Assembly (NCBI GenBank): GCA_965652295.1 | Contig: CBFGTS010000013.1 | Coordinates: 1-64,000 of the forward strand | DNA from: an uncultured Haloferula sp. | Lineage (GTDB): Bacteria > Verrucomicrobiota > Verrucomicrobiia > Verrucomicrobiales > Akkermansiaceae | Direction: 5' to 3' | Length of the DNA: 64,000 nt | Shown here: positions 15,001 through 18,000 of the stretch, one piece after another | Position numbering within the stretch: position 1 is the stretch's first letter | How the letters are laid out: each line of letters starts with the position of its first letter | Position numbers: made by a program

Positions 15001-18000
15001 TAAACGACATGATGACCGCGCTCGCGCCCGCCGATCTCGTCTGTCCACCAGATCTTGAGGAAATCACCCGGCCGGGCCTTCTCCCAATCCGTGAAATTCA
15101 CTCCCGCGCCGAGGTCCGCCACCAGCTTGGCCGCCCCGGGTCCGTTGGCATTCCAGCGCCCGAAAACACCGTGTCCGTCCTGGTGATCCATCACCGGCAG
15201 CAGCTCGGGCGAACCGTGATCGAGCGCCTCGAGTAATACCAGATACGTCGCCCCCGAGCAGAAGCTCGGTTTCGCACGATCAGCATTCACCCGGACCGCG
15301 CCTTCCGTCACCCGACATGCTTCCGGCAGCAGGTTCTTCGTCGCATCGCTCCCATCATATCCGCCTCCGGAAGGCATCGTTCGCACCGCCGTAAGCACCT
15401 TCGCGTTGAAATCCACATCCTCTCCCGCCGCCACGTTCGCGCAGCCAGCCGCGAGGACCGCAAAAGAAAGGACCGCCATCAACCTCACCATCATGCCGGG
15501 ATCAAAGCCACGCTGCCGGAACTTCGCGAGCGAATTGGAACGCGGGCTTCAGCTCGCTCGACCGATCGGGCGAGCTGAAGCTCGCGTGCCAATACCCGAG
15601 AGAAGGCGACGCACTTCCCGCTTTCCACCACAGCCGGCGATTCGTTTGGATGGTCGCCTCATGAAACTCGAAACGATCTGCCTCCACGGCGGCCACACCC
15701 CCGACGCCGTCACCAACTCCCGCGCCGTGCCCGTCTACCGCACCGCTTCCTACGTCTTCAATAGTACCGAACACGCCGCCAATCTCTTCGCCCTGCGCGA
15801 ACTCGGGAATGTCTACACCCGCCTGATGAACCCGACGACCGACGTGCTTGAGAAGCGCGTCGCGCTGCTCGAAGGCTCACACGAAATGGCCGGACTCGGT
15901 CACGCTTCCGGCACCGCCGCCATCTTCAACTCCATCGTCAACCTCGCCGAGGCGGGCGACAACATCGTCTCCGCCCGCAACCTCTACGGCGGCACCTACA
16001 CGCAGTTCAACGACATCCTGCCGAAGCTCGGTATCGAGGTGAAACTCATCGATTCCACCGATCCGGAGAACTTCGCGAAAGCGATCGATGGCAAAACCCG
16101 CGCGCTGTTCTGCGAAACGGTTTCCAATCCCGCGCTGGAGATCTCCGATCTGGACGCCATCGGCGACATCGCCAAGGCGCATGGCATCCCGCTGATCGTC
16201 GACTCCACCTTCTCCACGCCCTTCCTCACCCGCCCGCTCGACCACGGCGCGGACGTCGTCGTCCACTCGCTGACCAAATGGTTCGGCGGCCACGGTACCG
16301 CGATCGGCGGGATCGTCGTCGATTCCGGACGCTTCAACTGGGCCGGCGGAAAGCATCCACTCTACGACCAGGCCGATAGTTCCTACCATGGGCTGCGCTG
16401 GGGCCACGACCTGCCCGACCCTCTCGCCCCCCTCGCCTACATCCTGCGCATGCGCACCGTGCCGCTGCGGAACCTCGGGGCCTGCATTTCTCCTGACAAC
16501 TCGTGGTTCCTGCTCCAGGGGATCGAGACTCTGCCGCTGCGGATGGAGCGCCACTGCCAGAACGCTCTCGTCGTCGCCCGGCACCTCAAGGACCACCCGA
16601 AAGTCGAGTGGGTGCGCTTTCCCGGCCTGGAGGACGATCCGGAATTCGAGCGGAACCAGAAGTATCTCAAGGGCATGGGCGGCTCGATGGTGGTCTTCGG
16701 CATCAAGGGCGGCGCGGACGCCGGGAAAAAGTTCATCGAATCGCTTGGGCTCTTCTCGCACCTCGCCAACGTCGGCGATGCCAAGAGCCTGGCCATTCAT
16801 CCCGCCACCACGACCCACAGCCAGCTCGGCGAGGAACAACAGAAGGCCGCCGGCATCCCGCCCGAAATGATCCGCCTCTCCGTCGGCCTTGAGCACATCG
16901 ACGACATCCTCGCCGACCTCGATCAGGCGCTGGGCTGAGGCATTGAGGGTGGGAGAACCACTCGCCGCCCCAAAATGGCGGTTGCGATCAACCCTGCACG
17001 TTGACACGTGCAACCTCCTTTGCCCCGAAGGGGCATCGGACATTAGCCGGTGGCGCAAGCCACCGGTTTTTCGTTCGCGGGAACACCCCGCCCCGGAGGG
17101 ATTGTGGATCCGAGTCATCACAGAAAGCGCTCATCGTATGTCACCCCGCTCCGCCCCAGCAGCTCGACATACTCCTCTTGGAAACTCCGCTTCCGATGAT
17201 GCTCCTCCTGACGTGCGATGTATCCCTTCACCGCATCGCGCTGCGACGGACTCACCGTGAACGCCCCATAACCCTCCTGCCACATGAACCCCGGATCACC
17301 GATTTCCTCATGAATCCATCGCGAGGAAACCGATTTCACATCCCGGACCAAATCCGCAAGGCATGCGGTGGCGCGAATCCCAAGGAGCAGGTGGACATGA
17401 TCGCCCACGCCTCCGATGGCCTCCGGAACCGCTCCCGAGGTTTTCACCACCCCGCCCATGAATCCACGAAGCCGCTCCCGCCACTCGGATGCGATTCGAT
17501 CAACCCGGTCCTTGGTCGAGAAAACCACGTGGATATGAAGGGAGAGATGCGTTGATGGCATGGCGATTTCCAACACCCCTCCGGGGCGCAGGTTGGATCT
17601 ATCAGATTCCGGTGGCTCGCGCCACCGGCTAATGTCCGAAGCCCCTCCGGGGCCCGAGCCCGAAACTCGATGGTCCACCTCAGATCCCGGCACTCCTCGC
17701 CAGCCCTCTCCTCTCCCTAATTTGCAGGATGATCAGAATGAAAAATGACAGCATCATCAGACCGAAGGAGAGGATCAGCCCTTCAAGCAGGGTGGTGAGA
17801 AATGCCTCTTGGGGCCTCATTCGCTCAGAGCCCATCTCCTGAAAAAAGGGAACTCCCATCAATCCAAAGGCCGACTGCAACAGACTTACCGCCAACATTC
17901 CCGCCCAGAAGTCAGGGAGCACAAAGAACGCCCCCGGAATCAAACCCACCACGACGCTCGCCCCACTCAACCACATCCGAATCTTCGTCCCCAATGCCAA

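Follow-up and report, generated by a model that had tools for sequence, protein, structure and literature searches.

Inverted Acido-Lenti-1 copies around an IS200-clade Y1 transposase gene in Haloferula: a probable REPtron-like unit

Introduction

In a 64,000-nt stretch of DNA from an uncultured Haloferula sp. (positions 1–64,000 of contig CBFGTS010000013.1, analysed in full and called the window below), the locus at 17021–17654 is probably a REPtron-like unit, that is, an IS200-clade Y1/HUH tnpA gene held between a pair of inverted arms, each about 90 nt long; we put the probability of this reading at roughly 75%, with catalysis and mobility projected onto the locus from related enzymes. The Acido-Lenti-1 motif (Rfam RF01687) corresponds to the main hairpin, the tag and the outer hairpin of such an arm and, because its mirror-image copies flank the transposase gene as part of the gene's arms, this "sRNA" most likely represents a REP-type DNA repeat linked to a Y1 transposase rather than an RNA gene.

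Acido-Lenti-1 has been listed in Rfam since 2010 as an sRNA whose function is not known, and genome pipelines annotate it as ncRNA. One of the two phyla that give the motif its name is Acidobacteria (Acidobacteriota). As late as 2026, papers describe the motif as an RNA without known function, and a 2026 preprint, which reads copies beside protease genes as possible regulators, states that no mobile element lies nearby. Should the motif prove to be a REP-type repeat belonging to a Y1 transposase system, what these annotations point to is mobile or recombinogenic DNA instead of RNA genes. The REPtron-like reading would also revise the published REP-less description of TnpAY1 subclass 1.2, bring the IS200 clade within the REPtron concept, and provide a compact enzyme-and-hairpin pair that is open to bench testing.

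Organization of the locus

The features of the window are as follows:

2213..2300, minus strand: solitary arm of the same family, partly decayed, with no tnpA beside it (RF01687 22.5 bits at 2218–2263(-); blastn 77–80% to both arms; sequence view)
17021..17066, minus strand: RF01687 copy 1, the outer two hairpins of the left arm (cmscan 38.7 bits; inverted repeat)
17022–17026 / 17030–17034: stems of the outer hairpin, left arm (sequence reading)
17043–17046, plus strand: TTAG tag, left arm (sequence reading)
17047–17066: main 8-bp hairpin, left arm (sequence reading)
17067..17108, no strand assigned: inner part of the left arm, with the unconserved spacer and the inner small hairpin at 17091–17100 (inner inverted repeat, flank alignment)
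17118..17561, minus strand: tnpA, encoding a 147-aa Y1/HUH transposase (Pfam and NCBIfam scores, alignments, AlphaFold model)
17569..17608, no strand assigned: inner part of the right arm, with the inner small hairpin at 17576–17586 and the spacer (inner inverted repeat, direct repeat, alignment)
17609..17654, plus strand: RF01687 copy 2, the outer two hairpins of the right arm (cmscan 29.4 bits; inverted repeat)
17609–17628: main hairpin, right arm
17629–17632: CTAA tag, right arm
17641–17653: outer hairpin, right arm

The left RF01687 copy exceeds the cut-off of 37 bits in a whole-window scan at the gathering threshold, and the right copy, which lies below that cut-off, was recovered in a local E-value scan (E 2.7e-4); both align over all 46 model positions. 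A repeat search delimited an outer inverted repeat of 45 nt (17022–17066 / 17609–17653, 93% complementary, spacing 542 nt) and an inner one of 20 nt (17089–17108 / 17569–17588, 85%), and alignment of the left flank with the right gave a mean column identity of 79% over 128 columns. As a control for chance, inverted repeats at z>=6 flanked 0/300 random 444-nt segments of this genome, as against z ~20 for the unit at 17021–17654. The earlier note had described RF01687 copies in inverted orientation around a full-length Y1 gene, and these scans and searches recovered both copies and an intact open reading frame.

Each arm contains three hairpins, only the outer two of which are modelled by RF01687. 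Outward from the gene, the arm consists of an inner small hairpin, an unconserved spacer, a main GC-rich hairpin of 8 bp, a CTA(N) tag, a short linker, and an outer small hairpin. The tag is conserved and, read on the other strand as (N)TAG, stands at the 5' foot of the main hairpin. The inner hairpin of the left arm has its fourth pair broken by an A at 17101, a position that is G in contigs from sequencing runs of two further studies; with a G there, the pair would form again. The whole unit is 634 nt long and carries no tnpB.

The genome holds three diverged tnpA paralogs (on C13, the contig of the window, and on C15 and C3) with 55–70% amino acid identity, each with its own arms in the same layout. 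The partial third RF01687 copy reported behind the C15 paralog was found at C15:25093–25124, 52 nt from the gene. The C3 unit has stem sequences that differ yet remain mutually complementary; its two arms are 80% alike over 92 nt and have diverged beyond the reach of RF01687. The earlier view that the genome has only one full unit must therefore be dropped, since three are present and the C3 unit also has both arms. Two solitary arms complete the inventory, of which the one at 2213..2300(-) retains the outer hairpin, the TTAG tag, and the main hairpin with the same stem motif. No (-)/(+) doublets were found in this genome, where the system is nearly quiescent, a repeat without proliferation.

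The transposase and its subclass

The open reading frame between the arms starts with an ATG at 17561 on the minus strand, ends with a stop codon at 17118–17120, and is intact over 147 aa. A longer frame of 191 aa with a GTG start would run into the right arm, and we favour the 147-aa reading because its MPST... start is common to both paralogs. This agrees with the prior estimate of a gene of about 146 codons with the motif copies outside it, the arms lying beyond both ends of the frame. The 147-aa protein scores 77.7 bits against Pfam PF01797 (Y1_Tnp; cut-off 23) and 61.6 bits against NCBIfam NF033573 (IS200/IS605 family transposase; cut-off 55), and it does not pass the NCBIfam RAYT model NF047646 (18.5 bits against a cut-off of 80). 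Its motifs are DHVH at 54–57 (HUH residues H55 and H57), WQ at 94–95, and YIARQEEHH at 114–122 (Y114, Q118, and H121–H122). H55, H57, Y114 and Q118 are invariant in a 57-sequence alignment, the key-motif columns are invariant or nearly so in alignments of 22 and 57 sequences, and the 22-sequence alignment reveals a conserved C-terminal tail in the family. An AlphaFold model of the product has a pLDDT of 93.8, and a structural search with this model returned as its best matches the ISDra2 and IS608 TnpA proteins bound to their end hairpins (E ~1e-9), with the E. coli RAYT structure 4er8 only the 30th match, at 12% identity. Judged by its invariant residues, the confident model and these structural matches, the enzyme looks intact.

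In the classification of Quentin et al. (2018; PMC6006769), TnpAY1 subclass 1.2 is described as a low-copy, non-IS group of the IS200 clade, entered as "REP: no", with 1.7 copies at 36% identity; the same source gives a mean identity between copies of 99.4% for subclass 1.1, the true IS200, and describes subclass 1.2 as without typical IS200 end structures and found mostly in Cyanobacteria and Bacteroidetes. The window protein fits the subclass 1.2 type, as judged from the published motifs, length and copy pattern and not from the authors' tree or HMMs. The label "IS200-type" in the earlier note is thus borne out by HMM score and fold, and it appears unsuitable in the sense of an insertion sequence, since the protein resembles a low-copy, non-IS subclass. 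Such a subclass, together with the divergence of the paralogs, suggests a unit that behaves like a REPtron rather than like an IS with terminal repeats.

Conservation of hairpins and tag

The three helices covary: 88.5% of cells are paired compared with 70.8% in shuffles, none of 500 of which reached the observed value, and controls with slid helices gave 32–56%. Changes on both sides were seen in 14 of the 18 pairs. For the inner helix, which lies outside RF01687 and played no part in selection, the paired share is 79.5%, and four of its five pairs are compensated. Of 1480 pair positions in the stems, 1420 are Watson-Crick (96%), 12 are G:T and 18 are A:C, so that the G:T excess usual for RNA helices is absent from them; the same wobble counts across genomes are too few to decide which strand folds.

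The tag is one-sided. Among 181 arms with a perfect 8-bp hairpin, a set that was found without requiring a tag, the gene-distal side carries CTA in 101 and CTG in 15, compared with only 20 on the proximal side. The complements of the tag among 185 arms include TTAG (70), GTAG (43), and ATAG (23), TTAG being the form in the window.

Arms and motif beyond this genome

Inverted flanks recur at relatives of the gene in three sets of loci. They were found at 21 of 29 loci of the class (z>=7.5, one further locus dropped for a short flank), at 27 of 32 paralogs from five genomes (z>5, one dropped), and at 55 of 78 loci from named public contigs (z>=6, two dropped), the remaining 8/29, 5/32 and 23/78 being without inverted flanks under the same tests. 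The public loci, with phyla assigned by record title, span at least five phyla: Verrucomicrobiota (19/34), Planctomycetota (20/22), Acidobacteriota (10/14), Victivallales (1/1), Gammaproteobacteria (3/3), Nitrospirales (1/1), Geobacter (0/1), and other labels (1/2). RF01687 itself occurs in the canonical (-)gene(+) order, about 50 nt off each gene end, at 7 of the 29 class loci, and such canonical flanks occur at 11 of 40 loci labelled as other phyla, four of which are Acidobacteria/Acidobacteriota; the motif's adjacency to tnpA in other genomes, as first noted, was accordingly seen again both within the class and beyond it. Many relatives have a long-loop arm variant that RF01687 misses, and some loci show arms in direct orientation or entire doublets beside the gene (L038, L063, L050, L065, L177, L190). 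The CCGGTGG stem and the CTAAT tag persist across phyla at 52–56% protein identity; the spacers do not.

Gene and motif also tend to occur together. In 101 genomes of the class, with the subclass-1.2 gene scored as present at E<=1e-10, both were found in 22, the gene only in 3, the motif only in 10, and neither in 66; the motif is thus present in 22 of 25 genomes with the gene and in 10 of 76 without it (Fisher p 1e-11, a value that is overstated because related genomes are not independent). One of the ten genomes with the motif and no subclass-1.2 gene at this threshold (G039) has 27 copies of it, and its Y1_Tnp matches lie mostly in long open frames. Within genomes the paralogs have a median identity of 37–57%, and in four other genomes, with 6–8 copies compared in each, the median is 37–45%. 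The more alike two proteins are, the more alike are their arms (Spearman 0.35, 528 pairs), a co-divergence that is by itself no proof of recognition, as gene and arms are physically linked. The Acido-Lenti-1 motif has been associated with group II introns. A scan of 69 tnpA loci gave no match to group II introns at E<=0.1.

Gene-less doublets and site polymorphism

Relatives contain up to 54 RF01687 matches per genome, and gene-less (-)/(+) doublets dominate the high-copy genomes. Among the 150 listed of 422 matches in class genomes, 34 neighbour relations fall within 1 kb: 31 are (-)(+), one is (+)(-), and two are (-)(-). Among these listed matches, 29 of the 31 (-)(+) relations are 131–159 nt apart, start to start, and the remaining two, at 610 and 734 nt, each enclose a tnpA. 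The amplification to dozens of copies in (-)/(+) doublets with about 105 nt between copies, which the earlier note had reported, is reproduced here. The doublets retain all three hairpins in each arm; of the gene-linked arms compared, those of a single paralog, from the doublets' own genome or a related one, resemble them most, with identities of 70–92% and no closer match.

Insertion polymorphism between species was observed at one intergenic site within the genus, which is empty in one genome (G107), holds a doublet-bearing filler of 493 nt in a second (G113), and in a third (G116) is occupied by an unlike filler whose arm belongs to another family. Hypervariability is seen at the arm-holding intergenic sites, which contain other palindromes as well. 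For the unit at 17021–17654, four metagenome DNA runs from other studies, compared over 16000–18800, yielded no contig that bridges a site lacking the unit. The sulfhydrylase gene beside the unit has orthologs in 8 of 20 same-genus genomes, and synteny breaks right after it; these genomes therefore offer no clean empty site by which the ends of the unit could be fixed. Outside the outer hairpins of seven same-genus elements, one side is often T-rich, with no consistent pattern that would indicate a target-site motif.

Alternative explanations

An ordinary autonomous IS200/IS605 insertion sequence, with the arms as its ends and the doublets as MITE-like deletion derivatives, seems to us an unlikely description of the locus. 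It would account for the NCBIfam family name that the protein earns, for ISDra2, IS608 and IS200 TnpA as the closest solved structures, for a 97%-identical pair of copies in one genome (G081), for a gene family whose patchy distribution crosses phyla, and for the resemblance of the doublets to a unit minus its ORF. In IS200/IS605 elements such as IS608 and ISDra2, the subterminal hairpins at both ends point the same way on a single strand, and terminal inverted repeats are not known in this family; the arms here, in contrast, are inverted and 93% complementary over 45 nt, and those of most relatives are inverted likewise. Near-identity between copies is missing, with identities of at least 90% in none of three pairs in this genome and in only one of 102 pairs in five genomes, against the published 99.4% for true IS200. 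The lack of tnpB in so short a unit, and the Y---Q--HH signature with its conserved C-terminal tail, which defines non-IS subclass 1.2, also argue against an insertion sequence.

Very unlikely, in our view, is a small RNA or a cis-acting RNA structure, such as hairpins of the tnpA mRNA that control translation, stability or termination as in IS200, with regulation at the RNA level as the reason for the motif's position next to the gene. The motif was rated "y" (probably RNA) with strong covariation in the original survey (Weinberg et al., 2010; PMC2864571), IS200 is reported to be regulated through mRNA structure and antisense RNA (PMC4513863), and the left main hairpin, on the plus strand and followed by a T-run, lies downstream of the sulfhydrylase gene as a terminator-like match. 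DNA hairpins fit the covariation equally well, however, and the stems have no excess of the G:U type. No single transcript carries both copies in the Rfam sense, because they lie on opposite strands, and the gene-less doublets retain this mirror geometry in 31 of the 34 listed neighbour relations. In 27 of the 54 rows shown of the original alignment (counted by eye), the annotated strand has an A.C mismatch that on the opposite strand would be a G.T wobble; a promoter-like site was not found at the locus, and a single terminator-like match is what shuffled sequence leads one to expect (1.1). A passive association, in which independent palindromic repeats (terminators, insulators, or a MITE of another enzyme) pile up beside the gene or the gene landed in a doublet, strikes us as highly improbable. 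It could explain the doublets or direct-orientation arms beside the gene at the six loci named above, the ten genomes with motif and no gene, and the hypervariable arm-holding sites with their other palindromes, but not readily a spacing of about 50 nt to the gene ends and an orientation that are fixed across phyla, an arm variant peculiar to each paralog, arm similarity that tracks protein identity, or the skewed co-occurrence of motif and gene.

Proposed mechanism

For the REPtron-like unit that we favour, the steps are modelled on IS608 and ISDra2 TnpA and on the E. coli RAYT: TnpA would bind the tagged hairpin on single-stranded DNA and might cut and rejoin the DNA there, and this cutting and rejoining could maintain the arms and spread gene-less, inverted REPIN-like doublets in trans. 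This analogy is our basis for inferring binding and cleavage, the choice of active strand, and mobilisation in trans. The earlier note had proposed that the motif is the DNA end or hairpin of a Y1 element comparable to REPs and REPINs; its architecture, its conservation and the doublets uphold that proposal, with cleavage and mobilisation as its presumptive part.

A wider hypothesis, to which we would give even odds, is that subclass 1.2 TnpA and three-hairpin, TAG-tagged inverted arms form a distinct REPtron system, spread over at least six phyla and built on a class 1 enzyme rather than a class 2 RAYT. If this is true, domestication of the REP type either is older than the divergence of IS200 transposases from RAYTs or took place on two occasions; the many features annotated as "Acido-Lenti-1 sRNA" in public genomes would be the DNA repeats of this system; and the strand that folds and is recognised would be the complement of the one annotated in Rfam.

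Comparison with known systems

REPtrons, as described for E. coli and Pseudomonas, consist of RAYT (TnpA-REP) genes between inverted REPs, with dispersed REP doublets known as BIMEs or REPINs (Di Nocera et al., 2013, PMC3733652; Quentin et al., 2018, PMC6006769). The present system is similar in its low-copy Y1/HUH gene between inverted palindromic repeats, with a separate repeat family for each paralog; in the gene-less inverted doublets dispersed through the intergenic DNA of relatives, this genome having three units and two solitary arms; and in a short tag on one strand at the 5' foot of the hairpin. It differs in that its enzyme is of the IS200 clade (class 1, Y---Q--HH), whereas RAYTs are class 2 (Y---NP), as the RAYT model score reflects, and in having three hairpins per arm where REPs have one. 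The tag of GTAG-tagged REPs is given as 5' GT[AG]G at the hairpin foot (Di Nocera et al., 2013; Quentin et al., 2018), compared with (G/T/A)TAG here: the window has TTAG, and GTAG occurs in 43 of 185 arms.

With subclass 1.2, as characterised by Quentin et al. (2018), the proteins share DH[IV]H, WQ and Y---Q--HH, a length of about 148 aa, the conserved C-terminal tail, and few copies per genome with low identity among them. They depart from that description in their inverted three-hairpin arms, in place of "REP: no", and in their hosts, which are Verrucomicrobiota, Planctomycetota, Acidobacteriota and other phyla rather than mostly Cyanobacteria and Bacteroidetes. IS200/IS605 elements (IS608, ISDra2, IS200) have the same fold and catalytic motifs, are closest in sequence and structure, and also have small DNA hairpins adjoining the gene; the units here differ in their inverted arms, the lack of near-identical copies and of tnpB, and gene-less derivatives that are mirror doublets.

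TIRYTs and their TIRtrons are tyrosine transposase genes, with examples in Acidobacteria among others, whose flanking inverted repeats are longer and in some cases self-complementary and present at more than one place in the genome (Di Nocera et al., 2013). Most TIRYTs are placed in subclass 2.1, with about 238 aa, an HTH tail and a GGGGWSAS repeat motif (Quentin et al., 2018), features that the present units do not have. As for RF01687, one copy in the window passes its gathering score, and the summary table of Weinberg et al. (2010) does not flag Acido-Lenti-1 as transposon-associated, repetitive or possibly DNA; the family is filed as "Gene; sRNA", whereas here it represents two thirds of a DNA arm that is tied to a transposase gene.

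A transposase gene between mirror-image arms

Two inverted copies of Rfam motif RF01687 (Acido-Lenti-1), which is filed as an sRNA, had been said in the earlier note to bracket a Y1 transposase gene (tnpA) in the window, and Rfam scans, a repeat search, and the ORF and HMM scores bear this out as written. A scan of all 64 kb at the Rfam gathering threshold returned two matches, namely RF01687 at 17021–17066 on the minus strand (38.7 bits, cut-off 37) and a tRNA gene at 20686–20757 on the minus strand (69.6 bits), which is unrelated to the RF01687 finding; a local scan recovered the second, full-length RF01687 copy at 17609–17654 on the plus strand (29.4 bits, E 2.7e-4). 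The two copies form a 45-nt inverted repeat with 93% complementarity and a separation of 542 nt, with a 20-nt inverted pair (17089–17108/17569–17588, 85%) further in, and a mirror-image alignment of the two flanks has 79% of its 128 columns in common. Between these repeats, hereafter arms (~90 nt), an intact minus-strand ORF for a 147-aa protein begins with the ATG at 17561 and ends with the stop codon at 17118–17120.

Elements of the arms, read outward from the gene
Inner small hairpin: 17576–17586 (right arm) and 17091–17100 (left arm), with one broken pair at 17101 (left)
Spacer: ~22 nt, unconserved, between the inner and main hairpins
Main hairpin: 8 bp, GC-rich, 17609–17628 (right) and 17047–17066 (left)
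Tag: CTAA, after the main hairpin; on the other strand, TTAG at the 5' foot
Linker: ~8 nt, between the tag and the outer hairpin
Outer small hairpin: 17641–17653 (right) and 17022–17034 (left)

The RF01687 model covers the arm from the main hairpin outward, leaving out the inner hairpin and the spacer. Covariation was assessed in 40 arms from 21 loci picked via RF01687 matches, a choice that selects for the outer two helices and not for the inner one. Paired cells amounted to 88.5% versus 70.8% in shuffles (the observed value was reached by 0 of 500), the covariation score was 0.488 versus 0.170, both sides had changed at 14 of 18 pairs, and slid controls were 32–56% paired. The inner helix was 79.5% paired, with four of its five pairs compensated; all three helices of the arm are supported. 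The pair broken in the left inner hairpin is its fourth; the A responsible, at 17101, is a G in metagenome contigs from two other studies, which restores the pairing. A perfect 7-bp hairpin with a 4-nt loop (16995–17012) separates the left arm from the stop of a sulfhydrylase gene (16938); as nothing equivalent lies beyond the right arm, it probably does not belong to the unit.

Two paralogs of the window tnpA were located in this genome by tblastn, one on contig C15 (24598–25038, 70% identity) and one on contig C3 (43513–43950, 54–55%). The C3 gene lies between mirror arms (alike at 80% over 92 nt) that keep the three-hairpin plan with different but mutually complementary stems, and that are absent among the genome's six RF01687 matches at E≤1. 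The C15 gene has a full arm downstream and the inner hairpin only upstream; the partial third RF01687 copy claimed behind this gene is indeed present, 52 nt past the stop, and corresponds to that downstream arm. Solitary arms occur twice in this genome (window 2213–2300 and ~C15:1540–1590), and no gene-less doublet, that is, a (-)/(+) pair of arms, was found in it.

Inverted arms across the gene family

Inverted arms were scored for each gene by matching 140 nt of upstream sequence against the reverse-complemented 140 nt downstream, with shuffles as the reference.

Strong inverted repeats flanking tnpA
Class-sample loci: 21/29 at z≥7.5 (one dropped, short flank)
Paralogs from five genomes: 27/32 at z>5 (one dropped, short flank)
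Named public contigs: 55/78 at z≥6 (two dropped, short flanks)
Control, random 444-nt segments of this genome: 0/300 at z≥6 (highest z 4.9)
The 55/78 by record title: Verrucomicrobiota 19/34; Planctomycetota 20/22; Acidobacteriota 10/14; Victivallales 1/1; Gammaproteobacteria 3/3; Nitrospirales 1/1; Geobacter 0/1; other labels 1/2

Inverted arms are thus generally a property of this tnpA family. RF01687 itself was matched in the order (-), gene, (+), ~50 nt off each gene end, in 7 of the 29 class loci, the remainder having it on one side (5), in other arrangements (4), or without a match (13). Among 40 loci labelled as other phyla, it occurred on both sides in 11, on one side in 3, otherwise in 3, and not at all in 23; four of the 11 two-sided loci, labelled Acidobacteria or Acidobacteriota, carry copies exceeding the Rfam cut-off. 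The claim that the motif adjoins tnpA in other genomes is upheld by these two-sided loci in the class and beyond it. Many RF01687-negative loci have the same arm with a main-hairpin loop of 12–14 nt, and in such long-loop arms the stem CCGGTGG and tag CTAAT are kept across Planctomycetota, Acidobacteriota, Victivallales, Methylobacter, and Nitrospirales, where protein identity is merely 52–56% and the spacers are unlike one another.

Other layouts were also seen. In two Planctomycetota contigs (L177 and L190), whole (-)/(+) doublets with copies ~180–200 nt apart, not single arms, stand on both sides of tnpA. The two-hairpin module also forms same-strand tandem arrays, spaced 64–90 nt beside tnpA in two Planctomycetota loci (L187, 645–952; L169, 1204–1377) and 74–200 nt in the original seed genome (seed rows of Weinberg et al., 2010).

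Co-occurrence and gene-less doublets

Of 101 genomes of the class, 32 contained RF01687 (E≤0.01) and 25 contained the gene (E≤1e-10); 22 had both, 3 only the gene, 10 only the motif, and 66 neither of them (Fisher p 1e-11, which is overstated, since related genomes are not independent). The highest RF01687 copy numbers per genome were 54, 52, 48, and 41. Among the 150 of 422 matches listed, 34 neighbour relations under 1 kb comprised 31 of (-)(+), 1 of (+)(-), and 2 of (-)(-) type; the starts were 131–159 nt apart in 29 of the 31 (-)(+) pairs, and the other two, at 610 and 734 nt, each had tnpA inside. In spacing and mirror order, the doublets are therefore laid out like the unit with its ORF removed, and the proposed amplification to dozens of copies in the form of (-)/(+) doublets is confirmed.

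In sequence views, doublets retain three hairpins per arm and fold as a long imperfect palindrome (DNA folding energies between -63 and -111 kcal/mol in same-genus examples). They are most similar to the arms that belong to one particular paralog, either of the same genome or of a relative (70–92% identity). One genome (G039; 93% complete, 250 contigs) has 27 RF01687 matches and lacks the subclass 1.2 gene at E≤1e-10, its Y1_Tnp matches lying mostly in long open frames (178–394 aa), many covering part of the domain only; its repeats may be orphans, or the assembly may have missed the gene.

Turnover and strain variation

Synteny past the neighbouring sulfhydrylase gene (15406–16938) is broken in all eight same-genus genomes with its ortholog, and these therefore offered no clean empty site for the unit. 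In one of the eight (G104), an arm of this family stands alone 37 nt past the ortholog, in the same orientation, and tnpA is absent from the 1.5 kb around it; this is either the remnant of an old unit whose gene was lost or a sign of repeated use of the site. An intergenic site elsewhere in the genus occurs in three states: empty with abutting flanks (G107), with a 493-nt filler containing a doublet of the window's arm family (G113), and with a 456-nt filler containing an arm of another family plus tandem repeats (G116). This site gathers several sorts of hairpin elements. The G113 filler (L204, 1500–1650) also holds two further long palindromes of a different kind.

The right arm is structurally polymorphic among related strains: a sludge-metagenome contig (depth 3) lacks 17578–17644, with 17577 joined to 17645 via four other letters, such that the main hairpin is gone between two similar small hairpins (direct repeat D1). 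No metagenome contig from other studies bridged the site without the unit. In a soil-metagenome contig (depth 5), 17758–18379 (622 nt) is swapped for 32 other letters, which removes nearly all of a 232-aa membrane-protein ORF (17680–18378, minus strand); another contig of the same run keeps it, and the unit's neighbour gene is therefore variable among strains.

DNA element or RNA

The original description (Weinberg et al., 2010; PMC2864571) rates the motif 'probably RNA' and not cis-regulatory, and gives it 89 representatives, strong covariation, and some non-canonical pairs. Acido-Lenti-1 also appears in a 2023 annotation list, and a 2026 preprint calls it little known and suggests a regulatory role; literature searches on TnpAY1 and on RAYT in Verrucomicrobia yielded no paper connecting the motif with a transposase. 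Around the gene and in gene-less doublets alike, the two RF01687 copies lie on opposite strands in a mirror arrangement. RNA helices usually show an excess of wobble pairs, whereas the arm stems show none: among 185 arms in which CT follows an 8-bp hairpin, Watson-Crick pairs filled 1420 of 1480 stem positions, the rest being 12 G:T, 18 A:C, and 30 other (the same hairpin search found 92/266 in reverse-complemented and 89/266 in shuffled controls). The tag is one-sided; a search for perfect 8-bp hairpins that set no condition on the tag gave 181 arms, of which 101 had CTA and 15 had CTG on the side away from the gene, and only 20 had CTA on the proximal side. Between 16700 and 17900 there were no promoter-like sites and one terminator-like match, equal to the shuffled expectation. 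Taken together, the mirror arrangement, base pairing, tag, and promoter/terminator scan favour a DNA element rather than an RNA.

Rows of the original Weinberg alignment (Additional file 5) come nearly all from one draft genome, often from same-strand tandem arrays. On the annotated strand, one stem pair is an A.C mismatch in 27 of the 54 rows shown (counted by eye), which on the complementary strand would be a G.T wobble; two rows have the compensated G-C. This hints that the folded strand is the complement of the Rfam strand, the A.C rows reflecting few events because they are copies from one genome.

Relation to known insertion sequences and REPtrons

The 147-aa protein matches Pfam Y1_Tnp (77.7 bits, cut-off 23) and fails the NCBIfam cut-off for 'REP-associated tyrosine transposase' (only 18.5 bits, cut-off 80). 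Several measures place it in the IS200 clade: it passes the NCBIfam 'IS200/IS605 family transposase' cut-off (61.6 bits, cut-off 55), and phmmer against PDB sequences found exclusively ISDra2-type TnpA (best E 1e-6). Its predicted structure (pLDDT 93.8, pTM 0.88) matched ISDra2, IS608, and IS200 TnpA (E ~1e-9 to 1e-8, TM 0.6–0.7), followed by the E. coli RAYT 4er8 (E 6e-6, 12% identity). The unit's behaviour is nevertheless not that of an IS, given that paralogs within a genome have diverged (median identities 37–57%; ≥90% in just 1 of 102 pairs), that no tnpB accompanies this unit, and that the arms are inverted, whereas the end hairpins of IS608-type elements share a single orientation on one strand.

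Subclass 1.2 of TnpAY1, as characterized by Quentin et al. (2018; PMC6006769), has the motifs DH[IV]H, WQ, and Y---Q--HH, a conserved C-terminal tail, a median length of 148 aa, 1.7 copies per genome with 36% identity between copies, and a 'not IS-like' entry, and the window protein fits each of these features. In our 22- and 57-sequence alignments, D54, H55, H57, W94, Q95, Y114, Q118, H121, and H122 are invariant or nearly so. Quentin et al. (2018) also enter 'REP: no' for the subclass and place it mostly in Cyanobacteria and Bacteroidetes.

The identity proposed for the motif, a DNA repeat of a Y1-transposase element, holds on comparative evidence, and Rfam Acido-Lenti-1 is a fragment of an arm of this kind. 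The locus is best described as a REPtron-like system (a REPtron being a RAYT/TnpA-REP gene flanked by inverted REPs) whose enzyme is of the IS200 clade (subclass 1.2) and whose inverted arms have three hairpins and a TAG tag; its enzymology and mobility we infer from purely comparative evidence. Di Nocera et al. (2013; PMC3733652) described REPs with a GTAG tag, as well as REPtrons, from members of the PVC group (Opitutus terrae, R. baltica), and tyrosine transposases with flanking TIRs from Acidobacteria; some of those repeat families may overlap the arms found here. Canonical REPs bear GT[AG]G at the hairpin's 5' foot (Di Nocera et al., 2013; Quentin et al., 2018), and the arms have (N)TAG in this position on the other strand, N being T in 70 of 185 arms, G in 43, and A in 23. 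Set against the 'REP: no' entry, the inverted three-hairpin arms of these subclass 1.2 relatives therefore add to, and partly correct, that part of the Quentin et al. (2018) account.
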